This document shows, one piece after another, positions 1 through 42,659 of a stretch of 64,000 nt of DNA. Source of the DNA: Actinomycetota bacterium (lineage in GTDB: Bacteria; Actinomycetota; UBA4738; HRBIN12); the NCBI GenBank assembly GCA_040754475.1, contig JBFMCN010000007.1, forward strand, positions 10,296 through 74,295, given 5' to 3'. Under the pieces are notes generated by a model. That model was not told where the DNA came from. It did no database searches and saw only the letters and a program-made list of their open reading frames with translations. The position numbers were made by a program, and so were the translations under genes. The stretch's first letter is position 1, and the number at the start of each line of letters is the position of its first letter.

Positions 1-264
1 AACGCGCGGATCGGGGCCCTCGAGCAGCGGATCGGGGCGGCTGCCGCAGCGCCGGCCTGGTCCCCAACCCACCGCGTTCCGGCCGAGGGCATGCAAGCCT
101 GGGCGGCTCCCGATCCGGCCTCGTCCGTCGTCGCCCGGCTGGATCCGGGCCTGGAGCTCAGGGTCGACGAGGTCGCCGGCGCGTGGGCGCGTGTGACCGC
201 ATCGAACGGCTGGACAGGATGGGTGGACGGGCGGCTGCTGGTACAGATGGGAGGCGGCTCGTGA
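1..264 (+). CDS. C-terminal fragment of an SH3b-domain protein (5' end outside window)
   Basis: Frame 1 reads ...VARLDPGLELRVDEVAGAWARVTASNGWTGWVDGRLLVQMGGGS* with a bacterial SH3-like W..G..GWV signature. It ends at TGA at about 262-264. It is absent from the ORF track because it runs off the window edge. Confidence 0.45.
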   Translation, partial: NARIGALEQRIGAAAAAPAWSPTHRVPAEGMQAWAAPDPASSVVARLDPGLELRVDEVAGAWARVTASNGWTGWVDGRLLVQMGGGS

Positions 265-497
265 GCGAGCAGGTCGCGCGAGGGGCGGCCTCCCGCTTCG
301 CCGTTCGGTTCGTCCAGACGTACCGGGCGCGCGTCGGCCCCGGGCTGGAAGCGCGCTGCCGGTTCGAGCCGTCCTGCTCGACGTACGCGCTGGAGACCTA
401 CGGCAAGCTGGGGTTCGTCCGAGCGACCGCGAAGACCCTCCGACGGCTAACGCACTGCCGCGCCGGCTATCGGGGCGATCGGATCGATCCACCCTAG
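261..497 (+). CDS. yidD: membrane protein insertion efficiency factor YidD
   Basis: Conserved YidD core ...CRFEPSCSTYALETYGKLGFVRATAKTLRRLTHCRAGYRGDRIDP. The likely GTG start at 261 sits inside the longer track ORF 183..497 and overlaps the upstream stop. Confidence 0.8.
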   Translation: MSEQVARGAASRFAVRFVQTYRARVGPGLEARCRFEPSCSTYALETYGKLGFVRATAKTLRRLTHCRAGYRGDRIDPP

Positions 498-549
498 ACC
501 GGAACCCGACTCCGAGGATCGCGGCCCGCGCGATCGCTACCATGAGCGT

Positions 550-1401
550 GTGGTGGGCGGCGGGCTCGTCTGGAGGTGCGGCGACCTCGTGCTCGACTGC
601 GCCGAGCGGACGCTCATCATGGGGATCCTGAACGTGACGCCCGACTCCTTCTCCGACGGGGGCCGCTACTTCGATCACGCCGCGGCGGTCGAGCATGCCG
701 CTCGAATGGTCGACGAAGGCGCCGACATAATCGACGTTGGAGGCGAGTCGACGCGCCCCGGGTCGGATCCGGTCCCCGCCGCCGAGGAGCGCGACCGCGT
801 CGTGCCCGTCGTCGAGGCGCTCGCCTCCAGGGTGTCCGTCCCGATCTCGGTCGACACCCGCAAGGCTGAGGTCGCTCGCGAGGCGCTCGGTGCGGGGGCG
901 AAGATAGTCAACGACGTAACGGCGGGCGCCGATACGGAGATGTTCGACGTCGTCAAGGACGCGGGAGCCGGTCTCGTGCTGATGCACATGCTGGGCGACC
1001 CGAAGACGATGCAGGAGGCGCCCCGCTACGGAGACGTCGTGGCGGAGGTAAGGGAGTTCCTCCGTGAGCGGATCGGGGCCGCGGAGTTCGCTGGTGTCCC
1101 GTACGAGGCTCTGTGCATCGACCCCGGCATCGGGTTCGGCAAGGATCTCGTGCACAACCTCGTCATCCTGAAACGGCTGGAGACGTTTGCCGAACTTGGA
1201 CGTCCGGTGCTCGTAGGCCCGTCCCGGAAGCGCTTCATCGGTGCGATCCTGGACCTCCCTGAAGGTGAGCGGATCGAGGGCACCGCCGGTGCCGTCGCGT
1301 GGTCCGTCGCGCATGGTGCAAACGTCGTCCGAGTCCACGACGTGAAGGAGATCATCCGGGTCGTCCGCGTCGTTGACGCTATCGTGAGGGCGGACGCATG
1401 A
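550..1401 (+). CDS. folP: dihydropteroate synthase
   Basis: MGILNVTPDSFSDGG...DIIDVGGESTRPG...IVNDV...SRKRFIG motifs typical of FolP. GTG start at 550; alternative ATG at 619. Confidence 0.9.
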   Translation: MVGGGLVWRCGDLVLDCAERTLIMGILNVTPDSFSDGGRYFDHAAAVEHAARMVDEGADIIDVGGESTRPGSDPVPAAEERDRVVPVVEALASRVSVPISVDTRKAEVAREALGAGAKIVNDVTAGADTEMFDVVKDAGAGLVLMHMLGDPKTMQEAPRYGDVVAEVREFLRERIGAAEFAGVPYEALCIDPGIGFGKDLVHNLVILKRLETFAELGRPVLVGPSRKRFIGAILDLPEGERIEGTAGAVAWSVAHGANVVRVHDVKEIIRVVRVVDAIVRADA

Positions 1402-2300
1402 GTGGGCCCGAGAAACGACGGTTCCGCGTGTCGGCCGGCGAGCTCGCCTACACGGAGCTAGGCGATCCTGAGAACCCGGCGGTCGTGTTCATCCACGGGT
1501 TCCCCACATCCTCGTTCCTCTGGCGCGGGTTCCTGCCGATGTTCGCACCCTGGATGCGGGCGATCGCGCTGGACATGATGGGTGCCGGGGACTCGGACAA
1601 GCCGGAGGACGAGGATCTCTCGATCCGAGCTCAGGCGCGGTACGTACGCGAGCTGCTCGACGGCCTCGGCATCAAGGAGTTCGCGGTCGTCGGCCACTCT
1701 ACCGGCGGCGGGGTCGCGCAGCTGCTCGCCCTGGAGGGCGGGGTTCGCGCGATGGTGCTGATCGACTCGATCGCGTTCGACGCCTGGCCGGCGGAGAACA
1801 CCCGCGACATCCAGGGCGCGGGGTTCGTGACCGTAACCGAAGTGATGGTCTACGCGGTCGTGCGCCTGGCGTTCGAGTTCGGGATAGAGCGCAAGTCGCA
1901 GGTCACCGACGAGATCCTCGAGGAATACAGGCGACCGTGGACGGGCGAGGAGGGGGTGGCTGCGTTCCGGAGATGGGTCCGGTCGTTCGACGGTGTGGGT
2001 CTCGTGGGACTTGAGGAGGAGCTCGGCCGGCTCGAATGCCCCGTGCTGATCCTCTGGGGGGAGAACGACCCCAACTTCGCGGTCGAGGTCGCGGAGCGGT
2101 TGCACGCTGCGATCCCGACATCCACGCTTGCGATCCTGCCCGGTTGCTCGCACTTCCTGCCTGAGGACGCTCCCGAGACGATCGCGCCGATGATCCTCCA
2201 CTACCTGCGCTCGGAGTACCTCGGCCATCCGCACTCGCACGGCGAGCGGACGGAGGGCCGCGCGCAGCCGGAGCGGAGGCCGATCGGGGGGGAGGAGTGA
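1398..2300 (+). CDS. alpha/beta-fold hydrolase (haloalkane-dehalogenase/epoxide-hydrolase-like) embedded in the folate operon
   Basis: HGFPTSSFLW oxyanion region and GHSTGG nucleophile elbow. The start overlaps the folP stop (ATGA) and the stop overlaps the folB start (GTGA). Confidence 0.8.
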   Translation: MSGPEKRRFRVSAGELAYTELGDPENPAVVFIHGFPTSSFLWRGFLPMFAPWMRAIALDMMGAGDSDKPEDEDLSIRAQARYVRELLDGLGIKEFAVVGHSTGGGVAQLLALEGGVRAMVLIDSIAFDAWPAENTRDIQGAGFVTVTEVMVYAVVRLAFEFGIERKSQVTDEILEEYRRPWTGEEGVAAFRRWVRSFDGVGLVGLEEELGRLECPVLILWGENDPNFAVEVAERLHAAIPTSTLAILPGCSHFLPEDAPETIAPMILHYLRSEYLGHPHSHGERTEGRAQPERRPIGGEE

Positions 2301-2653
2301 CCACGTCGAGGTTGTTCCTGACGGGGGTCCGGGCAAGCGGACGCCACGGCGCGAACGTCGGCGAGAAGGACCGCTTGCAGGAGTTCGTGGTTGACCTCGA
2401 CGTGGAAGTCGAGGTGACGGGAGACCGGATCTCCGGGACGTCGGACTTCCGCGAGCTGATCCGGGTTGCCCGGGAGGTCGTGGCGGGTGGGTCGTTCGAG
2501 CTGCTCGAATCCATGGCCGAGGCCGTCGCGGGCGCAGTCGCCCATCAGGCCGGCGTCCTCCGCGCGACGGCTGTCGTCCACAAGCCCGCTGCGGCCGCTT
2601 CTAACGACATCCAGGGCGTCGCCGCCGCCGCCACCGTCGATTCGCAAGGCTGA
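2297..2653 (+). CDS. folB: dihydroneopterin aldolase
   Basis: LFLTGVRASGRHGANVGEKDRLQEFVVDLDVEV...FELLESMAE matches the FolB family pattern. About 118 aa. Confidence 0.85.
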   Translation: MTTSRLFLTGVRASGRHGANVGEKDRLQEFVVDLDVEVEVTGDRISGTSDFRELIRVAREVVAGGSFELLESMAEAVAGAVAHQAGVLRATAVVHKPAAAASNDIQGVAAAATVDSQG

Positions 2654-2665
2654 TCTGCGGGCGAA

Positions 2666-3172
2666 ATGGCCGTGTCGGCGTACCTGGGGCTTGGCTCCAA
2701 CCTGGGGGATCGGCTGGCGAACCTCCAACGCGCCGTCACTCTGCTGGCGGCGCATGACGGTCTGGACGTGGTGCGTTCGTCCCGCGTCTACGAAACGGAT
2801 CCCGTCGGAGGTCCACCGCAGCCCGAGTACCTGAACGCCGTTCTGGAGGTCCAGACCGCCCTGTCGCCCCGCGAGCTGCTGGGCACGTGCCAGGGCGTCG
2901 AGAACGAGCTGGGAAGGGTCCGCGCCGAGCGGTGGGGCCCGCGGACGATCGACGTCGACGTGCTTACCTACGCGGACGAAACCGTGGACGAGCCCGACCT
3001 GAGCATCCCGCATCCACGGATGCACGAGCGGGGATTCGTGCTGTTGCCTCTTTCCGAGCTGGATCCCGACCCCCCGCTCCCCGATGGGCGGCGCCTCGCC
3101 TCCTTGCGCCTCGGCCCCGGCGTGGTCATCGGTGTGCGGCCATACGCTCCTCCCTTGCGGGTGGGAAGGTAG
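2666..3172 (+). CDS. folK: 2-amino-4-hydroxy-6-hydroxymethyldihydropteridine pyrophosphokinase (HPPK)
   Basis: AYLGLGSNLGDR...YETDPVGGPPQPEYLNAVLEV...RWGPRTIDVDVL, the HPPK signature. Confidence 0.9.
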   Translation: MAVSAYLGLGSNLGDRLANLQRAVTLLAAHDGLDVVRSSRVYETDPVGGPPQPEYLNAVLEVQTALSPRELLGTCQGVENELGRVRAERWGPRTIDVDVLTYADETVDEPDLSIPHPRMHERGFVLLPLSELDPDPPLPDGRRLASLRLGPGVVIGVRPYAPPLRVGR

Positions 3173-3236
3173 GTTCGCCCCCCGGCTCGGGAGCATGGGT
3201 GGAGCGCCCTCCTTCCGAATTGGGATACTCGGCCTC

Positions 3237-4100
3237 ATGGACGTTGCGGTGGTCGGCGCCGGAACGGTTGGGACCGCTCTTGCGTTCAGGCTCCGCGAGG
3301 CCGGGCATCGCATCCTGGCCGTCTCGGGGGGCTCATCGACGGCAGAGCGTGCCGCCACCTACCTCCCGGGGGTGCCGGTCCTCGGTCCTGCCGACGCCGC
3401 CCGCGAGGCCGAAGTCGTGTTGATAGCGACCCCCGACGACCGGATCGGCCGAGCATGCGAGTCGCTCGCCCGGGCGGACGCGCTCAGAGACGGCGGAGCC
3501 GTGGCTCACGTCTCGGGGGCTACCTCGCTCGACGTGCTGTCCGCTGCCGGATCGGCCGGCGCCATGGTCCTGTCGATCCACCCTTTGCAGACGTTGCCGA
3601 GCGTCGATGTAGCGCTCGCAAGGCTGCCCGGCAGCGCGGTCGCCGTGACAGCCCTCTCGGAGTCGGGCTTCCTCCTTGGAGAGCGCCTGGCCGTCGACAT
3701 CGGTGGGCGCCCGTTCCGGCTGGCCGACGAAGCCAAGCCGCTCTATCACGCCGCCGCGGTGTTCGCCTCGAACTACGTCGTCTCGGTCGCGGCGCTCGCC
3801 GAGGAGCTGTTCGGGAAGGCCGGTCTGGCCGAACCGGTGGACGCGTTCCTACCCCTCTCACGCGCCGCCCTCGACAACGTCGAGGCGACGGGGACGGCTG
3901 CTGCCCTGACGGGCCCCGTGGTTCGGGGAGACGCGGGCACGGTGTCGCTGAACCTCGATGCGCTCGCCGGTCGTCTGCCCTCGGCGATCCCGGCCTACGT
4001 GGCGCTCGCCGGGGTCGCGCTCGGCCTCGGCGAACGCTCGGGCCGATTGTCGCCCGAGGGGCGCGCCGCGGTGGAGGAGGTGCTCGACCGTTGGAAGTGA
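3237..4100 (+). CDS. Rossmann-fold DUF2520-family protein (Rv3603c-like) between folK and panC
   Basis: MDVAVVGAGTVGTALA dinucleotide-binding N-terminus. It occupies the conserved actinobacterial position upstream of panC. The ATG at 3237 was chosen inside the longer track ORF 3084..4100. Confidence 0.7.
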   Translation: MDVAVVGAGTVGTALAFRLREAGHRILAVSGGSSTAERAATYLPGVPVLGPADAAREAEVVLIATPDDRIGRACESLARADALRDGGAVAHVSGATSLDVLSAAGSAGAMVLSIHPLQTLPSVDVALARLPGSAVAVTALSESGFLLGERLAVDIGGRPFRLADEAKPLYHAAAVFASNYVVSVAALAEELFGKAGLAEPVDAFLPLSRAALDNVEATGTAAALTGPVVRGDAGTVSLNLDALAGRLPSAIPAYVALAGVALGLGERSGRLSPEGRAAVEEVLDRWK

Positions 4101-4942
4101 CCCGCACGGTCGCAGCCGCTCGGGATGCCTGTGACCGGGCGCGTTCGCGCGGGCAGTCCGTCGGCTTCGTGCCGACCATGGGCGCGCTGCACGATGGACA
4201 CACATCGCTGGTCAAAGAAACCCGCGCGGAGTGCGACTTCGTGGTCGTCTCGATCTTCGTCAACCCGCTGCAGTTCGGTCCGTCGGAGGACTTCGCCGCC
4301 TACCCGCGTGACGAGCAGAGCGATCTTCAAGCGCTGGAGGCGATAGGAGCCGACATGGTGTTCCTGCCGAGCGTCGAGGAGATGGAGCCCGTGCGGCCGC
4401 CGGAGGTTCTCGTGGATCCGGGGGCGCTCGGCGAGCGGCTGGAGGGAGCCAGCCGGCCCGGTCACTTCCGAGGGGTCGCGACCGTGGTGGCGAAGCTCTT
4501 CAACGTGGTCGGACCGTGCCGCGCCAATTTCGGGGAGAAGGACGCGCAGCAGCTCGCACTCGTGCGGCGCCTCGTGCGCGACCTCGGTTTCCCGGTGGAG
4601 ATCGTCGCGTGCCCCACCGTTCGAGAGCCCGACGGGCTGGCGATGTCGTCTCGCAACGCCTACCTCTCTCGCGAAGAGCGGGCGGCGGCTGGCTGCCTGT
4701 TCCTCGCGCTGTCCGAAGCGGCTGAGATGGTCAGAGGCGGGGAGCGCGATGCCACCAAGCTCGTGGCCCTCATGGCGCGCCAGATCGGCGCCGCATCCGT
4801 CCCACAACTCGACTACGCGGCCATCGTCGACGAGGAGACGTTCGAGGAGGTTCGCGAGATCGTCCGCCCGGCGCGGGCCCTGGTCGCAGCACGGTTCGGC
4901 CGAGCGCGCCTCATCGACAACCTGGCTTTGCCGCTGCCCTGA
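4097..4942 (+). CDS. panC: pantoate--beta-alanine ligase
   Basis: VGFVPTMGALHDGHTSL...VVVSIFVNPLQFGPSEDF...GHFRGVATVVAKLFNVV is the PanC signature. GTG at 4097 overlaps the upstream stop (GTGA). The 5' part of track ORF 3455..4942 was rejected as an Arg-rich out-of-frame overlap. Confidence 0.9.
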   Translation: MTRTVAAARDACDRARSRGQSVGFVPTMGALHDGHTSLVKETRAECDFVVVSIFVNPLQFGPSEDFAAYPRDEQSDLQALEAIGADMVFLPSVEEMEPVRPPEVLVDPGALGERLEGASRPGHFRGVATVVAKLFNVVGPCRANFGEKDAQQLALVRRLVRDLGFPVEIVACPTVREPDGLAMSSRNAYLSREERAAAGCLFLALSEAAEMVRGGERDATKLVALMARQIGAASVPQLDYAAIVDEETFEEVREIVRPARALVAARFGRARLIDNLALPLP

Positions 4943-5028
4943 TCGGGGGTTTCGAATCCCCATCGCGTGTCGGCACGCTCCCGGTCGGGGAGAATGGGGC
5001 GCCGGTTCGTTCGGGAGGCGTCGGTAGC

Positions 5029-5811
5029 GTGCTGCTGGCAGTGAACGTTGGAAACACGAACACGGTGCTGGGCGTCTTCCACGGCGCCGAGCTGAAGTGG
5101 CACTGGCGCATGTCCACCGATCCCGAGCGGACCGCCGACGAGCTGGCGGTGGTCTTCAGTGGGTTCCTCGAGCAGCAAGATCTGTCCTTCACGAGGCAGA
5201 TCACAGGCGTTGTGATCTGCTCGGTCGTGCCGACGTCGACGCGGGCGCTGCGGGAGATGACCGAGCGGTACTTCCACTTCCCGCCCGTGGTCGTGGAGCC
5301 GGGCACGCGGACAGGCGTCCCGATCCTGACGGACAATCCGCGCGAGGTCGGAGCCGACCGGATCGTGAACGCCCTCGCCGCGTATCACCGGTATGGCGGT
5401 CCGTGCATCGTCATCGACTTCGGGACGGCGACCACGTACGACGTGGTCTCCGCGAAGGGCGAGTTCCTCGGGGGCGCGATCGCGCCCGGTGTGCAGGTCG
5501 CGAACGAGGCCCTGTCGGCGGCAACGGCGAGGCTGCCGCAGGTCGAGCTGCACCCGCCGCGATCCGTGACCGGGCGAAACACCATCGAGGCGATCCAGTC
5601 GGGGCTGCTGTACGGGGCCGCCGCAGAAACCGACGGCATGATCGACCGTCTCCGGGCGGAGCTCGGAGGGAAGGCGACGGTCGTGGCGACGGGGGGTCTC
5701 GCGCCCGTGGTCGTTCCGCACTGCACGGGTGTCGATCACCACGACGAATGGCTCACGCTCGAGGGGCTGCGGCTGGTCTTCGAGAAGAACGTCGGGTCAT
5801 TGGATGAGTGA
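5029..5811 (+). CDS. coaX: type III pantothenate kinase
   Basis: LLAVNVGNTNTVLGVF...GADRIVNALAA...IVIDFGTATTYD; CoaX family. Confidence 0.9.
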   Translation: MLLAVNVGNTNTVLGVFHGAELKWHWRMSTDPERTADELAVVFSGFLEQQDLSFTRQITGVVICSVVPTSTRALREMTERYFHFPPVVVEPGTRTGVPILTDNPREVGADRIVNALAAYHRYGGPCIVIDFGTATTYDVVSAKGEFLGGAIAPGVQVANEALSAATARLPQVELHPPRSVTGRNTIEAIQSGLLYGAAAETDGMIDRLRAELGGKATVVATGGLAPVVVPHCTGVDHHDEWLTLEGLRLVFEKNVGSLDE

Positions 5812-7285
5812 CGAGGGCTTCCGCGAGCAATCGGTGCTGCGTGCCCGGCGCGAGAGCCTCGAACGTCTGCGCTCGATGGGCGTCGAGCCCTTCGCGTTCG
5901 GCTTCGATCCGGACGCGCACGCGGCGGACCTGAACGAGCGATACGCGGGGCTCGCGGCAGACCAGGTGACCGACGATCGGTGCTCGGTCGCGGGCCGCAT
6001 CATCCTCGCACGGCGCTTCGGCAAGCTCACGTTCTTCACGCTCCGCGACGGGACAGGGGACATCCAGCTGTTCTGCACAGGCGAAGATCTCGGGCCCGAG
6101 CTGCTCGCGCTTCTCGACGAGGTCGACCGGGGCGACATAGTCGGGGTCCGCGGAAGGATCATGACGACGAGGAGGGGCGAGCTCTCTATCCGGGTCGACG
6201 AGCTCGTGATCCTGACGAAGTCGCTGCGTCCGCTGCCGGAGAAGTGGCATGGGCTGAAGGACCCGGACCTTCGGCAGCGCCTGCGCTATCTGCATCTGGC
6301 CACGGACCTCGAGTACCGGCGTGTCGTCCGTGCGCGCGCTCGGGCTCTCGGGGCGCTTCGGCGCGTGCTCGACGAGCGGGGCTTCGTGGAGGTCGAGACG
6401 CCGGTGCTGCAGTCGAGCGCAGGCGGTGCCATCGCCCGTCCATTCGTGACGCACCATCGTGCGCTCGGCATCGACCTGTATCTGCGGATCGCGCTCGAGC
6501 TGTACCTGAAGCGCCTGCTCGTAGGTGGCCTTGAGCGTATCTACGAGATCGGAAGGAACTTCCGAAACGAAGGGATCGACCGCAACCACAACCCCGAGTT
6601 CACGATGCTCGAGGTCTACGGGGCTTACGGCGACTGCTTCTCGATGATGGATCTTGGGCAGGCGCTTGTGCGGGAAGCGGCAAGAGCCGTGCGCGGTTCG
6701 CTCCGCTTCGAGTACCAGGGGCGGGCTCTCGACCTCGGATCGGAATGGCGCCGAGCAACGCTCCTCGAGCTGGTCAGTGAGGCAACCGGCGAGGACATAG
6801 CGCTCGACCGGCCGGATCTCGCGGAAGTCGCGCGAACGCACGGAGTCGATGTCCGCCCCTCGTGGGGTCCCGGGAAGATAGCGCTCGAGCTGTACGAGAA
6901 GCTCGTCGAGGGACACCTGTGGGAACCCATCTTCGTCACGGATCTCCCGCGAGAGGTGTCACCGCTGGCGCGTCCGCACCGCTTCACGCCTGGGGTCGTC
7001 GAGCACGTGGACCTCGTGATTGCGGGCATGGAGATCATCCCGGCCTATTCCGAGCTGTCGGACCCGGACCAGCAGCGGCGGAGCTTCGAGATCCAGGCCG
7101 AGGCACGGTCGAGGGGCGAGGAGGAGACCCACCCGATGGACGAGGAGTTCCTCACAGCCCTCGAGCACGGGATGCCGCCGGCGGGAGGGCTCGGCCTCGG
7201 GGTCGATCGCTTGCTCGTCATCCTCGCGGACGTGCCGTCTATCCGCGACGTGATCCTGTTCCCACACCACCGTCCTGAGGACTGA
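5804..7285 (+). CDS. lysS: lysine--tRNA ligase (class II)
   Basis: OB-fold N-terminus plus class II core (FRNEGIDRNHNPEFTMLEVY...GGLGLGVDRLLVIL). ATG at 5804 overlaps the coaX stop. Confidence 0.9.
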   Translation: MSDEGFREQSVLRARRESLERLRSMGVEPFAFGFDPDAHAADLNERYAGLAADQVTDDRCSVAGRIILARRFGKLTFFTLRDGTGDIQLFCTGEDLGPELLALLDEVDRGDIVGVRGRIMTTRRGELSIRVDELVILTKSLRPLPEKWHGLKDPDLRQRLRYLHLATDLEYRRVVRARARALGALRRVLDERGFVEVETPVLQSSAGGAIARPFVTHHRALGIDLYLRIALELYLKRLLVGGLERIYEIGRNFRNEGIDRNHNPEFTMLEVYGAYGDCFSMMDLGQALVREAARAVRGSLRFEYQGRALDLGSEWRRATLLELVSEATGEDIALDRPDLAEVARTHGVDVRPSWGPGKIALELYEKLVEGHLWEPIFVTDLPREVSPLARPHRFTPGVVEHVDLVIAGMEIIPAYSELSDPDQQRRSFEIQAEARSRGEEETHPMDEEFLTALEHGMPPAGGLGLGVDRLLVILADVPSIRDVILFPHHRPED

Positions 7286-7670
7286 GGGCGGGCGAGCCCC
7301 CGTCGGAGTCGGCGGCCTCGTGAAGCACGATCACGAGGTCCTCCAGCGCGACGCCCTTGGCGAGGAACCCCGAAGCTCCGGCCGTCCGCGCCTCCTTCTC
7401 GACGCCGGGATCGGCGTGCGCCGTCAGGATGACCACGGGGAGGTCCGGTCTTCGTCTGTGGATCCTTCGCATGGCCTCGATGCCGCCCAGGTCCGGCATC
7501 GACAGATCCATCAGGACGAGGTCCGGCTGGAGCACCTCTGCCTGCTTCGTGGCGGCGATGCCGCCGCCCGCTTCCCCTGCTACTTCGATGCTGTCCACCA
7601 TCTTCAGGGCGGACGTAAGAGCCCGGCGGAACGCCGGGTGGTCGTCAACGACCAGCACCCGCAACGCCAT
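7239..7670 (-). CDS. stand-alone response-regulator receiver (REC-only) protein
   Basis: VLVVDDHPAFRRAL...LVLMDLSMPDLGGIEAMRRI...VVILTAHADP...AGASGFLAKG carries the D-D-K receiver signature with no output domain. The 3' end overlaps the lysS 3' end convergently by about 47 nt. Confidence 0.7.
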   Translation of the reverse strand: MALRVLVVDDHPAFRRALTSALKMVDSIEVAGEAGGGIAATKQAEVLQPDLVLMDLSMPDLGGIEAMRRIHRRRPDLPVVILTAHADPGVEKEARTAGASGFLAKGVALEDLVIVLHEAADSDGGSPALSPQDGGVGTGSRRG

Positions 7671-18902: not shown

Positions 18903-19442
18903 ATGGGCGCGCACGAGCCACCAACGAACAGGAGCTTCTACTTCTCCTTGGCGACGAGCACACTGCGGTTCGCGATAATCGTTGCCCTCGTCGTGGGGGG
19001 CGCTCTTCTGATCAACCAGGCGTTTCAGGGAGAGAGCCCCAGCCAGCCGGACGGCGGCCTGGTCCCCACGACGTCGTCGACGCCTTCCGCGACTCCTTCC
19101 CCGAGCGGGCAGCCGAGCCCGCAGATCGCCGGCGTTCGGATCGCGGTCTTCAACGGCACCCAGGTAACGGGCCTCGCATCGGGGACGGCCGACGCTCTGG
19201 AGAGGCTCTACAACTACCAGATCGCCCAGACGCCGGCCGACGCCCCTTCGCCGGTCGCCCAGACGACGGTCTACTTCCGCGCGCCGGAAGACAAGGTGGA
19301 AGCGCAGGCGTTGGTGAACAACTTCTTCAAGGATCTGGAGGACGTCAAGATAGCGAAGCTCCCCGCCTCGGCCACGAATGTCGAGGCAGAAGTCCAGGTC
19401 GCCATCTACCTCGGCAACGACTACGCCGCCTCGCAGCAATAG
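18903..19442 (+). CDS. LytR_C-domain membrane-anchored protein
   Basis: Single TM segment, Ser/Pro-rich linker and a C-terminal LytR_C-like domain (VRIAVFNGTQVTGLASGTADALERLYNYQIAQ...VAIYLGNDY). ATG at 18903 chosen to avoid overlap with DUF3263. Confidence 0.7.
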   Translation: MGAHEPPTNRSFYFSLATSTLRFAIIVALVVGGALLINQAFQGESPSQPDGGLVPTTSSTPSATPSPSGQPSPQIAGVRIAVFNGTQVTGLASGTADALERLYNYQIAQTPADAPSPVAQTTVYFRAPEDKVEAQALVNNFFKDLEDVKIAKLPASATNVEAEVQVAIYLGNDYAASQQ

Positions 19443-20166
19443 CCTCGAAGCTCTCCGTGAGCGATCGCCCGCCGCCGGCATCTTCCTAGACTTCGACGGG
19501 TCGCTGTCGCGGATCGTCGACCGTCCGGAGCTGGCCCGTCCGGTAGAGGGCGCTCGTGAAACGCTGATCGCCCTCGTCCCTCGCTTCCGCGTAGTGGCAA
19601 TCGTGTCGGGGCGTCGGACGGAGGAGGTGGCCGGGCTGCTCGGCGTCTCCGGTGTCCAGTACCACGGCTTGTACGGCATGGAGCACACAGCGCCGGCTGT
19701 ACACGCAGCTGCCGTGTCACGAGCCGAGTCGGCGGCCGGGTTGGTGCCCGAGGCCTGGGTCGAGAACAAGGGCCCGTCGCTCGCGGTCCACTACCGTCAA
19801 GCGCCGGATCCGCAGTCGGCCCGGGCCGCGTTGGTGGGGGGGCTCCAGCAGGTCGCCTCCGAGATGGGGTTGGAGATCGTCGAAGGGAAGATGGTCGTTG
19901 AGCTCGTACCGGCTTCCCGGCCCCGCAAGGGGGGGGTGGTCGAGCGCCTGGTCGCGGAACACGGGCTTGCCGCGGCCCTGTTCGCCGGCGACGACGCGGC
20001 CGACATGGAGGGCTTCGCGTCGCTCGACCGGCTCGCTGAGAAGGGGCTCATCACCGTGAGGGTTGCCGTGCGTGGTGACGAGACGCCCGATTCGATGATC
20101 CGTGCCGCCGACATCGTCGTCGACGGGCCCGAGGGATTGGTGGGCCTGCTCCGTCAGATCGCCTGA
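19378..20166 (+). CDS. otsB: trehalose-6-phosphate phosphatase (HAD-IIB)
   Basis: FLDFDGSL motif I, AIVSGRR, GDDAADMEGF motif; T6PP family. The ATG at 19378 overlaps the LytR_C end by 65 nt and the 3' end overlaps otsA by 13 nt. Confidence 0.75.
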   Translation: MSRQKSRSPSTSATTTPPRSNSLEALRERSPAAGIFLDFDGSLSRIVDRPELARPVEGARETLIALVPRFRVVAIVSGRRTEEVAGLLGVSGVQYHGLYGMEHTAPAVHAAAVSRAESAAGLVPEAWVENKGPSLAVHYRQAPDPQSARAALVGGLQQVASEMGLEIVEGKMVVELVPASRPRKGGVVERLVAEHGLAAALFAGDDAADMEGFASLDRLAEKGLITVRVAVRGDETPDSMIRAADIVVDGPEGLVGLLRQIA

Positions 20167-21641
20167 GCGCGCAGTCGACGCTGGCGCACCCGCTCGAGAT
20201 CCTCGAGATGCGCCCGCACCCACCGTTCGGGCGGATTCGAGAGCACCAGTCTCGAGAGGCCGCGTGCCCGCCGAGCCCGCTCCTCATCTGGCATCTCAAG
20301 GGCGTCGCCGAGCGCGTCGGCCATCTCCCCCAAGTCGAAGGGGTTCACCGCCAGGGCGTAGCGCCCGAGGCGCCAGTACGCGCCGGCGTTGCGCGAGAGG
20401 ACGAGCACGCCCTGGCGCCGGTTGAGGAGCGGACCCTCCATCGCGACGAGGTTCATCCCGTCGTAGATCGGGTTGACGAAGAGCACGTCATACAGGCCGT
20501 AGGCGGCGATCGCTCCGAGGTAGTCGTCCTTCACGCGGACGTCGATCGGCTGCCACATGTCCTCGCCCAGTTCCCGGTTGATCCGCTCGGCCTCGGCGAG
20601 GCACTCCTCCGTGTAGGCCTGGTACTCGGGAAGCTCCATCCGCGAGGGCGACAAGAGCGCCAGGAACCGAACGCGGCCGCGCCACGAGGGAACCCGACGA
20701 AGGAGAAGCTCGTAGGCTCGGAAGCCACGCACGATGTTCTTCGTGAGCTCGAGTCTGTCCACTCGGAGTATCAGCCGGTTGTTGCCGCGCCAATGGTTCA
20801 GGTCCCGTCGGAGCGCGCGCACCTCCTCCGTCGATGCCACCTGACGCATCGGTCCCGCCTCGACCGATATCGGATGGATGCGCACCATCACTTCGCGTCC
20901 TTCCGTGCTGATGCGCGCGCGCGCGAGGTCGACCCGCACACCGGACAGAGACCGCGCCGAGGTCAGGAAGTTCTCCGCCCACGCTTGCGAGTGGAAGCCG
21001 AGGACGTCGGCACCGAGCATCCCTCGAAGCACGCCGTCCCGGATCTTGGCCGGCAGGATCCGCAGGTAGGTGGCCCCGGCGATCGCGGTGTGCGAGAAGT
21101 GGGCGATCAATGCGTCCGGTCGAAGCTCTCGCAGGAACCTCGGTACCAGGGACAGGTGGTAGTCCTGGACTAAGTAGACGGGGGGTGAGGTCTGACGATC
21201 ACCCTCCTCCGCGAGCGCACGCGCGAAGGCCCTATTGACCTGCACGTAGTCGGCCCACGCCTGCTCGACGTCCGTGCCGAAGATCGGCGAACGGACCGTG
21301 TCCCAGAGGTAGTGGTGGACGAACCAGAGGATGCCGTTGGAGATCCGGGTGTAGTACCCCTCGTACGTGTCGGGGGGGATGTCGAGATAACGGACGCGAT
21401 ACGCGGAACCGAACGCCTCCATGTCCACGCGGCCTTGGTTGGATCCTTTCACGAGCTCGCGATCGGCCTCCGACATCGCCGCCGCGACCCACAGACCTCG
21501 GGTCTTCTGCAGCGCGCCGATGAGCGCCGTCACGAGCCCGCCGGAGCCGCGTCGCGGGACGAGCTCACCTCGCTCGTCGCGTTCGAAGGTCACCGGCCCC
21601 CGGTTCGACGCCACGACCAGCGGGGCGTCGGATGCGTTCAT
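20154..21641 (-). CDS. otsA: alpha,alpha-trehalose-phosphate synthase (GT20)
   Basis: LVVASNRGPVTFERDE...WVHDYHL-type GT20 architecture, 495 aa. Confidence 0.9.
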   Translation of the reverse strand: MNASDAPLVVASNRGPVTFERDERGELVPRRGSGGLVTALIGALQKTRGLWVAAAMSEADRELVKGSNQGRVDMEAFGSAYRVRYLDIPPDTYEGYYTRISNGILWFVHHYLWDTVRSPIFGTDVEQAWADYVQVNRAFARALAEEGDRQTSPPVYLVQDYHLSLVPRFLRELRPDALIAHFSHTAIAGATYLRILPAKIRDGVLRGMLGADVLGFHSQAWAENFLTSARSLSGVRVDLARARISTEGREVMVRIHPISVEAGPMRQVASTEEVRALRRDLNHWRGNNRLILRVDRLELTKNIVRGFRAYELLLRRVPSWRGRVRFLALLSPSRMELPEYQAYTEECLAEAERINRELGEDMWQPIDVRVKDDYLGAIAAYGLYDVLFVNPIYDGMNLVAMEGPLLNRRQGVLVLSRNAGAYWRLGRYALAVNPFDLGEMADALGDALEMPDEERARRARGLSRLVLSNPPERWVRAHLEDLERVRQRRLRAQAI

Positions 21642-22879
21642 GCCAACTTCGACATGAGGTGGAGGTAGTCCTCGACCTCGCGAGGGGTCAGGAACCGCCG
21701 GCGGACGCGCTCCCTGCCTGCGGCACCGAGCCGCTCGCGGAGATCCGCGTCGCGCAGGAGCTCAACGATCCGCCGAGCGCAAGTCTCCACGGAGTCCACC
21801 AGGTACCCGCTGCGGCCGTCCTCGATCTGCAGTCTGATCCCGCCGACGTTGCCGCCGACCACCGGCTTTCGCTTCCACATGCCTTCGGCGACGACGAGCC
21901 CGAAACCCTCGCGGATCGATTTCTGCACGATCGCCTCAGCGGCGCGCTGGAAGGCGTTGATCTCCAGGTTCCCGACCTGCTGGAGGTTGGTGAGCAGATG
22001 GATATCGGGATCGCCGCGCCGGTGCTCCTCGGTGAGGTCGAGGTAACGCATGCCTTCAGGGTCGTCGCTGGCGAGCGACCCGGCCATGATGAGCTGAAGG
22101 CCGGGAACCACGTGACGGGCGAGGCGGTAGGCGTCGATTACCCCGAGGGGGTCCTTCCACGGGTCGAAGCGCGAGACCTGGGCGATGATCGGGCGGTCGG
22201 GGTCGATGCCGTATCCGGATAGGACACCACGGACGGCTTCGTCCGGCACCGGGGAGTTCTTAGGAGAAAGCGGGTCGATCGAAGGGGGGATGAACGCGAG
22301 GACGGGCCGCCCAAGGCCCGGTCGTGCGTACTCCTCCATCGTGAAGATCGCAGCGTCGAAACGGTCCACGAGCGGCTCGAAGAACTCCCACACGGGCTCG
22401 AATGGGGTCGACAGGTCGATGTGACAGCGCCACAGCCAGCGGCCGAAACGACGCCCCTCGTCCTCGATCACCGACAGGATCGCCGCCGGCTGGGGATCGT
22501 GGATGAAGACGAAATCGAATCGTTCCGTAAGTCGGCTGGCGTTCGTGCGGATGCGGTCCCAGTAGATTTCACGCATCCGGCCGGACCATGGGATCTCGGC
22601 CCCCTGCAGCGCGTTGTGGACGCTCTTGGTCACGTGGAAGTACTCGTCCGACCCCTCGACGACGGCCCACGCGACGTCCAGCCCGAGATCGTCCATCAGC
22701 GGGAGCTGCGTGTGCAGCAACTCGGCAACCCCGCCCCCGAAAGCCGTGCTGTTCACGTGCAGCACACGGGCTCCGGCCAGCGGATCCGCCGCCTTGCGAA
22801 GCCGTTCGACGGCTTCCGGCCCGGCGGCCTCCGTGTAGTCGTCGACCCGCTTGTCGCCGAGGGGGACGATCGGAAGCAT
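21638..22879 (-). CDS. treT: trehalose glycosyltransferring synthase TreT (GT4)
   Basis: Near-colinear with archaeal and Rubrobacter TreT (HVNSTAFGGGVAELLH...WLWRCHIDLS...PPSIDPLSPKN...QVSRFDPWKDP...MSIREGFGLVVAEGMWKRKPVVGGNVGGI). Its stop overlaps the otsA start. Confidence 0.85.
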   Translation of the reverse strand: MLPIVPLGDKRVDDYTEAAGPEAVERLRKAADPLAGARVLHVNSTAFGGGVAELLHTQLPLMDDLGLDVAWAVVEGSDEYFHVTKSVHNALQGAEIPWSGRMREIYWDRIRTNASRLTERFDFVFIHDPQPAAILSVIEDEGRRFGRWLWRCHIDLSTPFEPVWEFFEPLVDRFDAAIFTMEEYARPGLGRPVLAFIPPSIDPLSPKNSPVPDEAVRGVLSGYGIDPDRPIIAQVSRFDPWKDPLGVIDAYRLARHVVPGLQLIMAGSLASDDPEGMRYLDLTEEHRRGDPDIHLLTNLQQVGNLEINAFQRAAEAIVQKSIREGFGLVVAEGMWKRKPVVGGNVGGIRLQIEDGRSGYLVDSVETCARRIVELLRDADLRERLGAAGRERVRRRFLTPREVEDYLHLMSKLA

Positions 22880-32539: not shown

Positions 32540-33661
32540 TCAGGCGGTGTCTGCCTCTCGGTCCCCCTCCGCCCGCCACCTGGCCTGCAGGCGCTTCATC
32601 AGTTCCGGCATCGTGGTGTACTCGAGCTCGTCCAGACCGATCCGGTGTGGCTCGAATGGACCCATCCGCCGCATGTAGTCGGCGGTTCGGAGCGCGATCT
32701 GCCGGGCGCGGTCGAAGCCCAGATCGGCGAACATGTCTCGGGGGCCGTTGAGCCTCCCGTCCTTCACCTGGAAGCCGAGCGCGACGATTCGCGGCGGCCC
32801 GTCGAATCGGGACGGCGTGGCGTCCTCGATGCTCGTCGGCATGAGCGGCCCGAAGTGCGAACCGCGCATCCATCCTGCCACCAGATGTGGGAATGCGAAG
32901 GGCTCGAGCACCTCGCCGACGGCAGGTAGGCCGCTCTGACACCGGACGATGAGCACGGGGTCGTCCTTACCCACGTACCGCCCGGCCATGAGGGACAGAC
33001 GCTGGGTGGACGTGGCGGCCGCCACGATCCCGTCGCTTCGGGAGCGAACGCGCCTGATCACGAAGCTGTGGGGAGCACCGACCAGCATCAGCAAGTCGTA
33101 GTAGTCCTCGGGCGTTCGCAGATCGACCGCTTGGTCCTCCTTGAGGTCGAGGACCTCGAACTCGAACCCGGAGTGCAACTTGGGGTCGATCACGAGACCG
33201 ATGGAGGAGAACGGGTCGGCGAACATCCTGGACAGGGGGAGGTTGAAGGCGCCGGGCTCGGTCTTGTCCGCCAGGAACACGAGGACTGGTTCGCTCGGCC
33301 GCTCGACGAAGGTCATCTCCGCGTAGCCCGGCCCCATGCCTCGCAGGTTGCCGCTGAAGGCGTCGGTCAGGAGGTCCTGCCCGGCTCCGTACATCCCGAG
33401 CCTCGTAGCCACCTCGGTGGTCGCCTTGAAGACGTCCCAGGCAAACCCGTGGACGCGCTCGCTGTTGGCGCCGTGCTGGTGCGTCAGGATGAGAGCGAGG
33501 TCGTCTCCGACACGGTTCACCTGTCCGTCGATCACGAGGCCCGCATCCACGGCCTCACGTACTCGCTCCCTCGCCACTTGAACCATCTCGGGGTGGACCT
33601 CGGTGTGACCCACGAAACCGCCGGTATCGGCCTTGATAACGGACAGCGTGACCTCCATCAC
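32540..33661 (-). CDS. fbp: bifunctional fructose-1,6-bisphosphate aldolase/phosphatase (class V FBPase)
   Basis: Colinear with archaeal FBP aldolase/phosphatase: VTLSVIKADTGG, HVGDDL, GQDLLTDAFSGNLRGMGPG, KTEPGAFNLP, YVGKDDPV, PHLVAGWMRGSHFGPLMP, FDGPPR. Confidence 0.9.
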   Translation of the reverse strand: MMEVTLSVIKADTGGFVGHTEVHPEMVQVARERVREAVDAGLVIDGQVNRVGDDLALILTHQHGANSERVHGFAWDVFKATTEVATRLGMYGAGQDLLTDAFSGNLRGMGPGYAEMTFVERPSEPVLVFLADKTEPGAFNLPLSRMFADPFSSIGLVIDPKLHSGFEFEVLDLKEDQAVDLRTPEDYYDLLMLVGAPHSFVIRRVRSRSDGIVAAATSTQRLSLMAGRYVGKDDPVLIVRCQSGLPAVGEVLEPFAFPHLVAGWMRGSHFGPLMPTSIEDATPSRFDGPPRIVALGFQVKDGRLNGPRDMFADLGFDRARQIALRTADYMRRMGPFEPHRIGLDELEYTTMPELMKRLQARWRAEGDREADTA

Positions 33662-39572: not shown

Positions 39573-40979
39573 GTGCGACGGGGTGCCGAGCCTCGCGAGC
39601 CCGCCGTCGCGGTGGTCCTCGCCGTTGTGGTCCTGGCGGTCGCGGCGTTCAGGCCGTTCCCGCAGGTCCCCACCGATCTCCGGCCGAACATCGTAGTGAT
39701 CCTGTCGGACGACCAGTCATTCGACTCCCTGCCTCACGACCCGCCGGTGATGCCACGGCTGCAGGCGACGATCGACGATCACAACGGCCACTGGGTCTCC
39801 TTTCCGAACGCGTTCGTGAGCACGCCGCTCTGCTGCCCTTCGCGCGCGACGATCCTCACCGGCCGGTACTCGCACAACACGGGCGTGCAGACGAACGACC
39901 TGGCCGACCTTCTCGACGATGGCTCGACCGTGGCCACCTGGCTGCAGGGCGCCGGCTACTACACCGGCCTGTTCGGCAAGTACCTGAACGGCTATCCGTT
40001 CGGGTACTCGACCTTCGTGCCCCCGGGATGGGACAGGTGGCTGGGGCGGCTACAGGCGGGCCAGTCGTCGCTTTACTACAACTACGTCCTTGTCGATCAA
40101 GGATTCCCTGTAGCCCACGGGAGCGCCCCCTCCGATTACTCGACCGACGTCCACGCCGCGGCCGCCGCGGACTTCATCCGAACCGCTCCCGCGGACCGAC
40201 CGTTCTTTCTGGCGGTGACCCCGTCCGGGCCGCACCGCCCGTGGACTCCCGCGCCGCGGGACACCGGTGCGTACGCCGACATGGCGATAGCAGCGCCGGG
40301 GAGCATCGGTGAGGGCGACGTGTCGGACAAGCCGGCGTGGGTGCGGGCGCTGCGCCCGATGTCCCGCGAGCGTCTCCAGCAGCTCGACGGGATCCACAGG
40401 CGGTCGTTCGAGACGCTCCGATCCGTCGACCGGCTCGTGGCGGGCGTGGTGAAGGCGCTGCGTAGGCGCGGAGCGCTCGACCGAACGATCATCTTCTTCC
40501 TCACCGACAACGGCTTCTCCTTCGGCGCGCACAGGTGGACGAGCAAGGGCTGCCCTTACGAAGAGTGCGTCCGTACGCCGTTCTTCGTGCGGGTGCCCGG
40601 GGCTGTTGCCCGCGTGGACGGGCACTTGATCTCGAACGTGGATCTGGCGCCCACGTTCGCCGAGCTGGCCGGGAGTGCCCCGGCCTCTCCCGTGGACGGT
40701 CGGAGCCTGGTGCCGCTCCTGGAGGGCTCCACCGTGCCCGATTGGCCCGACGGCGTGCTCCTTGAGTACGTGGGCGACGCTCACATTCCGCCGTGGCGGG
40801 CGATCCGCACGGAGGAGTTCGCCTACGTGGAGTACGCGACGGGCGAGCGCGAGCTCTACGACCTCACCGGGCGCCTGGGCTCCCCGGATCCCTACGAGCT
40901 GGAGAACAGGGTCTCCGATCCCGCCTACGCGGGGCTCCGAGCCGATCTCGCGGCACGGCTAGAACGCCTCGCCGGCTGA
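39573..40979 (+). CDS. Cys-type sulfatase (formylglycine-dependent)
   Basis: [10 protein letters not shown], sulfatase signature [13 protein letters not shown] (C-x-P-x-R), and an N-terminal signal/TM segment. Confidence 0.85.
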
Positions 40980-40998: not shown

Positions 40999-42621
40999 GT
41001 GCCTGGGCGTGCTGCTACTGTCTGCGCCGTGCAGTACACGCCCGGTCCCGGCTCTCGCCTCCCGGTGCCGCGCTCGCGCCGCCTCCTTGCACGGCGCCGA
41101 GCCGCCCGGCGCAAGGGCTTCCTAGTGGTCCTCGCGGCCCTGTGCCTGTTCATCGGGTGGAGAGCCTGGCCGAAGGGGGGAGGTACGGAGAGCGCGGGTG
41201 GGAGCCCAACCCCCGGGGGAACAGGCGGGACCGGTGCCACGTCCACCCCGAGCTCAAGCAGCGAGCCCGGCGCCTCCCCGATCGAGCACGTCGTCTTCAT
41301 CGTCAAGGAGAACCGAACCTTCAACAACTACTTCGCGACCTACCCGGGAGCCGAGGGGACGACCGAGGGCGGAACGATCGAGTGCACCGAGAACGGCTGC
41401 GAGGACGGACCGGTCGTGCAGCTCGAGCATGCGGAGGATACCCAGCCGCACGACCTGACCCACTGCTTCCGGTGCGGCCTCGTCGCGATCAACGACGGGA
41501 GGATGAACGGCTTCAACTGGATGAACGGAGTCATCCCGACCACTGCGGAGAAGGCCCTTCTCTACGGCCACGACTTGAGCGGATACGTGTATCACGACCG
41601 CGACACGCTGCCGAGCTACTGGGCCTATGCGGATCGGTTCGTGCTCGCCGACCAGTTCTTCACGTCCATGTACGGGCCCACCCTCCCGGAGCACCTGTAC
41701 GCGGTGGCGGCTCAGGCGAACGACATCGTCGACAACAAGAGCACAACAGACCACCCGAACAGCTATTGCGATGATCCCACCGAGAGCGCGACCCGGTTCG
41801 AGCAGCATCTCTCTGCGGGAGAGGTCCGCCTGATCATGCAGCTGGAGGAGGAGATCGCACGGAACGGGTCGAATACCTGGGATCTGGCGAAGTACTGGGA
41901 CAGCGTCCGATTGTGCTTCGACATCAAGGTGCTGCCCGACCAGCTCGAGGAGGCCGGGATCTCCTGGAAGTACTACGCGAACGAGAACTCGTGGATGAAC
42001 GCCCTCCAGATGATCAGGCACGTTCGCTACAGCTCGATGTGGAGCAAGGTGCGCCCCCCCGAGGAGTTCGTCCAGGACGTTCGCGACGGAGAGATGGCCC
42101 AGGTCTCCTGGATCATCCCCTCTGAGTCCTACAACGAGCACCCGGGTGGCGAGAAGAGCGTGTGCGCCGGCGAGAACTGGACCGTGCACCAGGTCAACAC
42201 GATCATGAAGAGCGAGTACTGGGAATCGACCGTGATCGTGGTCGTGTGGGACGACTTCGGTGGGTTCTACGATCCGGTCGTCCCGCCGCACTACGACATC
42301 ATGGGGCTCGGTCCCCGCACCCCCGCCCTCATCATCTCGCCGTACACGAGGCAGGGAGACAACCCCAACGGCGGTTATGTGGACCACACCGTGTACGAGT
42401 TCTCCTCGGTCCTCGCGTTCATCGAGCAGATCTTCGAGTTGGAGCCGATGACCGAACGGGACGCGGACGCAAGTCCGCTGGCCGGCGCGTTCGATTTCGA
42501 GCATCCGAACTTCGAGAAGCTCGTCCTGCCGCTCCGTCAGGACTGCCCCTACGGGACGTCGTTCGCGCACTTCCGGGCGAGCTGGCCCTACCTGCGGACG
42601 ATCGGCTCACAGAAGGACTGA
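40999..42621 (+). CDS. phosphoesterase-family protein (phospholipase C / AcpA acid phosphatase family), membrane-anchored
   Basis: [26 protein letters not shown]-terminal motif and C-terminal [11 protein letters not shown]. Confidence 0.85.
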
Positions 42622-42659
42622 ACGTCCGCGGGCGCCCGCTGCGCGGCGGCACGGCCCCG

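Follow-up and report, generated by a model that had tools for sequence, protein, structure and literature searches.

What does an alpha/beta-hydrolase do in the middle of a folate operon? Few bacterial pathways are as well mapped as folate biosynthesis, a classical drug target in which sulfonamides act on the dihydropteroate synthase FolP. In a 64,000-nucleotide stretch of an Actinomycetota genome (GTDB lineage UBA4738, HRBIN12; assembly GCA_040754475.1, contig JBFMCN010000007.1, positions 10,296–74,295 of the forward strand; hereafter the window), a plus-strand gene for a 300-amino-acid protein of the alpha/beta-hydrolase fold (hereafter ABH; positions 1398–2300) lies directly between folP and folB, the latter encoding dihydroneopterin aldolase. 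The initial annotation of this locus proposed that the hydrolase replaces an enzyme of the NudB/FolQ type, removing phosphate from the pterin ahead of FolB. Its premise agrees with published work, in which the dephosphorylation enzymes of the pathway are unassigned in most bacteria (PMC1971073; PMC4161248). These steps are the remaining gaps in the pathway and have drawn repeated comparative-genomics searches.

The locus is unusual in that a gene with a fixed place in a folate operon is translationally coupled there and remains under strong purifying selection although the catalytic residues of its product have decayed. Our leading interpretation, which we hold tentatively, is that ABH is a conserved pseudo-hydrolase, co-translated with FolP, that serves as a binding or scaffolding partner of pterin-branch enzymes, of which FolP is the most probable. 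Throughout, residue numbers are those of the window ABH, locus labels (L001–L103) denote related ABH loci and P labels denote protein homologues.

ABH is translationally coupled to folP and holds a fixed place in the operon

Profile searches confirmed the genes on either side of ABH, so that it is indeed embedded between folP and folB/folK. The product of folP (550–1401, + strand) matches Pterin_bind (5.6e-88) and TIGR01496 (335 bits, cut-off 162.6), that of folB (2297–2653, +) matches PF02152 (62.6 bits, cut-off 31.8; E=5.9e-17) and that of folK, the hydroxymethyldihydropterin pyrophosphokinase gene (2666–3172, +), matches HPPK (1.6e-42) and TIGR01498 (157 bits, cut-off 54.1). ABH shares four nucleotides with each of its neighbors, and the open reading frame coordinates place both overlaps exactly where the initial annotation had put them: the ABH ATG lies on the TGA of folP (ATGA, 1398–1401, +), and the folB GTG lies on the TGA of ABH (GTGA, 2297–2300, +). 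A GGAGG at 2291–2295, just ahead of this GTG, may be the ribosome-binding site of folB. The ABH start at 1398 is supported because alignments of orthologues begin at residues 1–5, upstream of the sole alternative start at 1428.

Overlaps of this kind are cheap by chance, since a start codon arises wherever a TGA stop follows A, G or T. What carries weight is their recurrence in relatives, at the true N-terminus. The folP and ABH frames overlap by 4 nucleotides in 28 of 30 loci, making this the most constant of the region's junctions; the 4-nucleotide overlap between ABH and folB is present in 24 of 31. Insertions are tolerated at the folE adjacency, at the ABH/folB junction and at the junction of folK with the downstream DUF2520 gene, and several loci carry extra genes after folK. 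The constancy of the folP/ABH junction therefore makes folP the tightest link of ABH, which shares its mRNA with folP and is coupled to it in translation.

A protein search with ABH returned 993 matches. The best 120 are all more than 53% identical to it, 283–310 amino acids long and single-domain, with no fusion; all come from metagenomes or metagenome-assembled genomes, and the few organism names given are Actinomycetota. When one genome per species was scanned with an alignment of the homologues, 12 loci came out at 39–63% identity, followed by a sharp fall to 33% or less. The order folP-ABH-folB-folK, usually continued by DUF2520-panC-coaX-lysS, was found at 12 of those 12 loci, and a fol gene was nearby in none of the other 68 loci of the scan (at most 33% identity). 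Four contexts recovered from the protein matches, covering six loci (L081–L086), showed the same folP-ABH-folB order. Among metagenome loci, all 16 with at least 42% identity were fol-linked (L087–L101 and L103), and none of those at 38% or below was. Thus a neighborhood check set beforehand came out in favor of the linkage expected in the initial annotation: all 35 orthologous loci recovered, with ABH 39–84% identical and all from uncultured Actinomycetota, are linked to fol genes, with ABH in the folP-folB slot. Wherever the flank was visible, FolP was the upstream neighbor (33 of 33 loci), and FolB followed at once or behind a single inserted gene (34 of 34). By comparison folE is variably placed, either beside folP or parted from it by SH3 and yidD genes, as in the window.

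The alpha/beta-hydrolase fold is kept while its catalytic residues decay

That the protein belongs to the alpha/beta-hydrolase fold, as first described, was borne out by both profile and structure. It matches PF00561 (Abhydrolase_1; 98.1 bits against a cut-off of 25.8, E=8.7e-28) and PF12697 (Abhydrolase_6; 82.5 against 26.3). An AlphaFold2 model built from 120 homologues had a predicted local distance difference test score (pLDDT) of 90.1 and a predicted template modeling score (pTM) of 0.88, with only the tail, residues 279–300, below pLDDT 50. Its order of strands and helices is typical of the fold, with the central sheet, nucleophile elbow and cap all in place. Compared with the Protein Data Bank (PDB) by Foldseek, the model matched 1698 chains at E≤0.001, and the best 50 were all alpha/beta hydrolases. 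Leading these were haloalkane dehalogenases, PlaF, the entry 5w15, C-C hydrolases and epoxide hydrolases, at template modeling (TM) scores of about 0.75 and 22–28% identity; the matches were generic, with no functional clue among them.

The copy of ABH in the window looks like an intact enzyme. It has a complete Ser-His-Asp triad, with S101 in the motif GHSTGG (codon 1698–1700), H252 (2151–2153) and D224 (2067–2069), and an HG oxyanion motif at residues 33–34. Across 132 orthologues, the nucleophile column contains Gly in 93, Ser in 17, Ala in 15 and Asp in 7, and the catalytic His column contains His in 98, Tyr in 31, Asn in 2 and Phe in 1, so that the His is lost in 34. The joint conservation of elbow, acid and His that marks a canonical serine hydrolase is thus not seen among the orthologues. 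The HG motif is present in 95% of 145 family members and is replaced by SGG or AGG at seven metagenome loci (L089, L093–L096, L099 and L100). Ser gives way to Ala even within the subclade of the window copy, where P0011 and P0013 have GHATGG. Other columns barely vary over the 132 orthologues: D224 is kept in 131, D123 in 125, H100 in 130 and C250 (codon 2145–2147 in the window) in all 132. On a neighbor-joining tree, the nucleophile column changed at least 18 times, equal to the site median of 18, and the His column at least 12 times, with zero changes at C250, W42, R43, D59, S66 and G103.

The 34 sequences without His252 all have a His at position 102 (GHGHGG), and within the GHGHGG clade residue 252 toggles between His and Tyr at least 12 times. 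His102 may compensate for the lost His252, or it may simply mark one clade. A metal site formed by H100, C250, H279 and H281 (the last two in the tail motif PHSH) was considered and rejected, as the tail is disordered in the model and several members have Gln, or nothing, in place of its first His.

Since the nucleophile is absent from most orthologues, and the His and, in one subclade, even the HG motif can be lost, the conserved function of the family is not covalent hydrolysis. Judging from its intact residues, the window ABH could possibly act as an esterase, though this would not be the function that the family conserves.

The decay has not been accompanied by a loss of constraint. For the pair L003/L004, the ratio of nonsynonymous to synonymous substitution rates (dN/dS) was 0.15 for ABH, 0.20 for FolP, 0.19 for FolB and 0.29 for FolK. 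In the subclade that has neither the nucleophile nor the HG motif, ABH had a dN/dS of 0.10–0.13 in close pairs and 0.22–0.27 in more divergent ones; FolP ranged over 0.06–0.22 in the same comparisons. ABH is thus under purifying selection as strong as that on its essential neighbors despite its catalytic decay. At larger distances it evolves about 1.5 times faster than FolP or FolK.

Family-specific residues lie mainly outside the old active site

ABH is a lineage-restricted, previously undescribed family within the known alpha/beta-hydrolase fold. Searches against NCBIfam gave matches below threshold only (PRK03592, 108.5 bits against 241; PRK03204, 82 against 466; PRK00870, 70 against 265). 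A profile of the family matched best, among PDB sequences, the uncharacterized Burkholderia ambifaria protein 5w15 (3.5e-39), followed by haloalkane dehalogenases (1e-31 to 1e-34). The motif GHD(x)GG, with an Asp nucleophile, occurs both in 5w15 and in the nearest unlinked metagenomic alpha/beta hydrolases. From these matches, the ABH family appears to descend from Asp-nucleophile enzymes of the epoxide-hydrolase/haloalkane-dehalogenase type. Members of that type (DhaA, DbjA, DhmeA and 5w15) resemble ABH in their helical-cap fold (Foldseek TM 0.70–0.79) and in the motifs HG(F)PTSSxLWR, DxxGxGxSDKP, H-Nu-x-GG (Nu, nucleophile), WGExD and HxxxED, and a few deep members of the ABH family keep GHD(L/I)GG with the Asp.

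By its sequence, ABH nevertheless fits neither of these enzymes in its present form. The Asp has become Gly, Ser or Ala in 125 of 132 orthologues. The H-D-W signature of haloalkane dehalogenases is missing: the window copy has GHSTGG, and position 102 is His, Thr, Val, Leu or Phe but never Trp. At the second halide residue ABH has Phe (Phe35, in HGFP) for the Asn of HGxP, leaving no halide site, and its scores fall below the dehalogenase family cut-offs. The HGFP of epoxide hydrolases is present, but the Asp nucleophile occurs in only 7 of the 132 orthologues, the window copy not among them, and the ABH sequence shows only one conserved Tyr in the cap (Y177). ABH further differs from the whole group in its fixed folate-operon position and in the added elements described below.

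We defined a family-specific position as one conserved in at least 95% of 145 members and in at most 23% of 13 unlinked alpha/beta hydrolases. The positions so found are L74, G199, G201, L202, C250, T261, P264, R271, Y274, H279 and H281. They fall into three elements: a DGxGL loop (198–202) before strand beta7, a PGC motif before the catalytic His (PGC(S/G)H, 248–252), and the last helix with a C-terminal extension, YLRxxYLGxPHxH, which no unlinked relative has. The window ABH carries all three, as DGVGL, PGCSH and YLRSEYLGHPHSH, and the motifs are absent from the 13 unlinked hydrolases. In some members the PHxH tail reads PQxH or is missing. Most other invariant residues were inherited from dehalogenase- or epoxide-hydrolase-like ancestors, namely TSSxLWR, DxxGxGxS, H100, WGExD and ED256–257. 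The newly conserved features thus lie mainly outside the catalytic pocket, as would be expected of a docking surface.

The gene does not appear to be a recent arrival. Its GC content at third codon positions (GC3) is 0.88, against 0.85–0.86 for its neighbors, and a recent horizontal insertion was ruled out because of this match together with conservation of the arrangement across FolP divergence down to 58% identity.

ABH may bind or scaffold the enzymes of the pterin branch

We infer a partner or binding role for ABH, and with it a link to folate synthesis. The family became fixed between folP and folB in an uncultured clade of Actinomycetota, and the function under selection does not use the canonical nucleophile–His machinery. 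ABH might work in one of two modes, in which either the old active-site pocket binds a ligand of the pathway or the protein docks to enzymes through its DGxGL loop, last helix and C-terminal PHxH tail. A more specific form of this proposal, possible rather than likely, is that ABH serves as scaffold or ligand sensor, a dedicated non-catalytic subunit either of dihydropteroate synthase or of an assembly of FolP, FolB and FolK.

Both halves of the proposal have parallels elsewhere. NDRG/Ndr proteins, neuroligins and the plant receptor GID1 are eukaryotic pseudo-enzymes or receptors of the alpha/beta fold that act by binding, their catalytic residues lost. ABH likewise keeps the fold under selection while its catalytic residues are lost. 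No sequence relationship to these proteins can be demonstrated, the Pfam Ndr match being below threshold (18.8 bits against a cut-off of 23.3), and ABH differs from them in being bacterial, embedded in an operon and coupled to a biosynthetic enzyme. Tying FolP physically or stoichiometrically to neighboring steps is itself recurrent, as in the FolB-FolK-FolP proteins of fungi and Pneumocystis and the fused pyrophosphokinase–synthase (HPPK-DHPS) of plants and Plasmodium. In the ABH loci FolP is coupled to its neighbors through overlapping stop and start codons along folP-ABH-folB, and, unlike the fused proteins, the best 120 homologues include no ABH fusion. Our literature search found no accessory alpha/beta-fold subunit described for the fused pterin-branch complexes.

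The Asp-type members (L005, L006, L009, L081 and L101) may represent an ancestral state that is still catalytic; the catalytic residues would later have decayed again and again, with a second, non-catalytic role persisting. An F420-dependent PPOX-class (PNPOx-like) gene lies between ABH and folB at four loci (L006, 6886–7359; L081, 5032–5496; L009, about 6885–7316; L011, about 6092–6517). Three of these have an Asp-nucleophile ABH, L011 being the only one that does not; put the other way, the PPOX-like gene is present in three of the four Asp-type loci with a visible downstream flank. This insert may mark an ancestral catalytic module. The loci in hand suggest such a course, from an Asp-bearing ancestor through repeated decay, only weakly.

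Several points weigh against a binding or scaffolding role in folate synthesis. All related loci were found with ABH as the query. The counts of changes in the catalytic columns come from a simple neighbor-joining tree. In 24 of 132 orthologues, the window copy included, a Ser or Asp nucleophile survives alongside His and Asp; there may be true enzymes among the members, and the family could be heterogeneous in function. Finally, the conserved block is a housekeeping super-operon of mixed, unrelated functions (hpt-ftsH-folE-folP-...-panC-coaX-lysS-clpC), and position within it does not by itself prove a role in folate synthesis.

Alternative explanations for the conservation of ABH

One alternative is that ABH is still an enzyme, but a nucleophile-independent one, in which the fold serves as a scaffold for binding and general acid/base chemistry only, on an intermediate of the pterin branch or the para-aminobenzoate branch; elimination of pyruvate from aminodeoxychorismate, or the protection or repair of oxygen-labile dihydropterins, would be examples. 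The alpha/beta fold does include some lyases, decarboxylases and cofactor-independent oxygenases of this kind. The near-invariance of D224, D123, H100 and C250 fits such an enzyme, as does purifying selection equal to that on the neighboring enzymes, and with His102 in all 34 sequences that have lost His252, a pocket His would always be available. We nonetheless consider it unlikely. The His102 seen where His252 is lost may stem from shared ancestry in one clade and not from compensation, the residues H100, D224 and WGExD also occur in unlinked relatives and are thus inherited structural features, and the conservation particular to the family lies outside the pocket. In the sequence available, the pathway lacks no such candidate reaction.

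A second alternative is that ABH has nothing to do with folate, and is an ordinary esterase or hydrolase, or a decaying remnant, that was inserted once and kept for its expression. In the genome of the window, this would make it an active serine carboxylesterase. The complete GHSTGG/D224/H252 triad and HG motif of the window copy speak for this, as do its best single-sequence matches in the PDB, chains derived from RPA1511 with the motif GHSAG (E=1.3e-27); RPA1511 is a carboxylesterase. The mixture of unrelated functions in the surrounding block points the same way. A remnant would not be expected to show a dN/dS of 0.10–0.15 or invariant family-specific residues, however, and an esterase should keep its Ser, which is replaced by Ala even in the subclade of the window copy. 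Nor did any orthologue in the 35 loci lie outside the folP-folB slot, though the neighborhood is otherwise rearranged. Such a passenger therefore seems improbable to us, whether active or decaying.

The idea with which the locus was first annotated fared worst. ABH is directly upstream of folB, is co-translated with fol genes and could fill an unassigned step, and no Nudix box in any frame, no Nudix Pfam hit and no Nudix gene was found within the 64-kb window. It is nevertheless very improbable that ABH replaces NudB/FolQ or the unassigned monophosphatase, dephosphorylating dihydroneopterin triphosphate or monophosphate ahead of FolB, given that the nucleophile is Gly or Ala in 108 of 132 orthologues and that the His is missing from 34 and HG from one subclade, all under strong purifying selection, and that no metal-site signature is conserved, the PHxH tail being variable. 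To our knowledge, no physiological phosphatase has the alpha/beta-hydrolase fold, and our literature search found no publication linking an alpha/beta hydrolase with folP, with dihydroneopterin phosphates or with the folate pathway at large. The Lactococcus lactis folQ gene and candidates for an HDIG-type FolQ2 are embedded in folate gene clusters (PMC1971073), as ABH is. ABH is of an unrelated fold and has neither the Nudix box (GX5EX7REUXEEXGU) nor an HD motif, nor a Pfam match to either family.

A better candidate for this step is found next to folE. Twelve related loci have a gene for a hydrolase of the haloacid dehalogenase (HAD) superfamily, HAD-IA-type and about 220 amino acids long, directly upstream of folE, between ftsH and folE. 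They include L001–L006, L011, L082 (7835–8497), L097, L098 and L100; others have no HAD gene before folE. The protein matches PF00702, and TIGR01428 at 108 bits, below cut-off; the corresponding region of our genome falls just outside the window. HAD is the classical phosphatase fold, and this hydrolase is a more plausible candidate than ABH for the unassigned dihydroneopterin phosphate phosphatase.

Gene order and other features of the window

The left end of the window is an uninterrupted run of plus-strand genes, from the 3′ end of an SH3-domain protein gene through lysS (5729–7285). Only the end of the SH3 gene is present (1–263, +; tblastn with the SH3_4 protein of L086 gave 85% identity over 1–261). 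It is followed by a gene for a YidD-like membrane protein insertion efficiency factor (183–497, +; PF01809, E=1e-15; 81% identity to the YidD of L086 over 261–494), whose real start is probably near 261. The closest relatives, L085 and L086, have the order ftsH-folE-SH3-yidD-folP-ABH-folB-folK, so it is the SH3 gene that parts folE from yidD-folP. Downstream of folK are a Rossmann-like/DUF2520 gene (3237–4100, +; DUF2520 3.4e-32, Rossmann-like 2.1e-22), found also in every related locus long enough to show that region; panC, encoding pantoate-beta-alanine ligase (4097–4942, +; Pantoate_ligase 3.3e-104), which likewise begins in a GTGA overlap, with the DUF2520 gene (4097–4100); and coaX, encoding type III pantothenate kinase (5029–5811, +; Pan_kinase 6.1e-74). 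Read from its first possible start, the lysS frame overlaps coaX by 83 nucleotides (5729–5811). A response regulator gene, clpC, carD, ispD and ispF come after lysS. A scan of positions 1–7400 found no terminator-like and no sigma-70-like site.

The FolB of the window has Phe51 (TTC, 2447–2449) where alignment to Mycobacterium tuberculosis FolB (1nbu) places the catalytic Tyr. This position is Tyr in the M. tuberculosis enzyme and in 14 of 14 relatives checked; the single A-to-T change is unique to the window assembly and may be genuine variation or an artifact of the assembly. Tyr-to-Phe replacement at the catalytic Tyr of the dihydroneopterin aldolases of Staphylococcus aureus and E. coli reportedly turns the aldolase into an oxygenase. 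The Tyr in all 14 relatives rules out Phe51 as a clade feature tied to ABH.

Elsewhere, the window encodes an archaeal-type class V fructose-1,6-bisphosphate aldolase/phosphatase (32540–33661, − strand; PF01950, E=1e-172), an enzyme typical of archaea and of deep-branching or thermophilic bacteria and unusual in an actinobacterial genome. A trehalose cluster (19378–22879) comprises genes for a trehalose-phosphatase (19378–20166, +), a GT20 trehalose-6-phosphate synthase (20154–21641, −) and a TreT-type synthase (21638–22879, −). Two adjacent, convergent genes of the PF04185 phosphoesterase (phospholipase C/acid phosphatase) family at 40999–44021 lie beside a sulfatase gene (39573–40979) and are unrelated to the fol genes. 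The 64-kb window contains no pab genes. An Rfam scan of the window found one tRNA only and no rRNA.

Implications for folate synthesis and pseudo-enzymes

Operon position alone can mislead: here a hydrolase is embedded in a folate operon, yet its catalytic residues are dispensable, so that it cannot, in any conventional sense, be the phosphatase missing from the pathway. The ABH family, of which we recovered 35 fol-linked loci and at least 120 protein clusters with identities above 53%, offers a clean natural case of a bacterial pseudo-enzyme under strong selection within a biosynthetic operon. If our leading interpretation is right, ABH would be an accessory protein of a kind undescribed for the folate pathway, a bacterial pseudo-hydrolase recruited to folate biosynthesis. 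As an accessory subunit or a sensor for FolP, it would extend the pathway by one new part in an abundant, uncultured group of soil actinobacteria.

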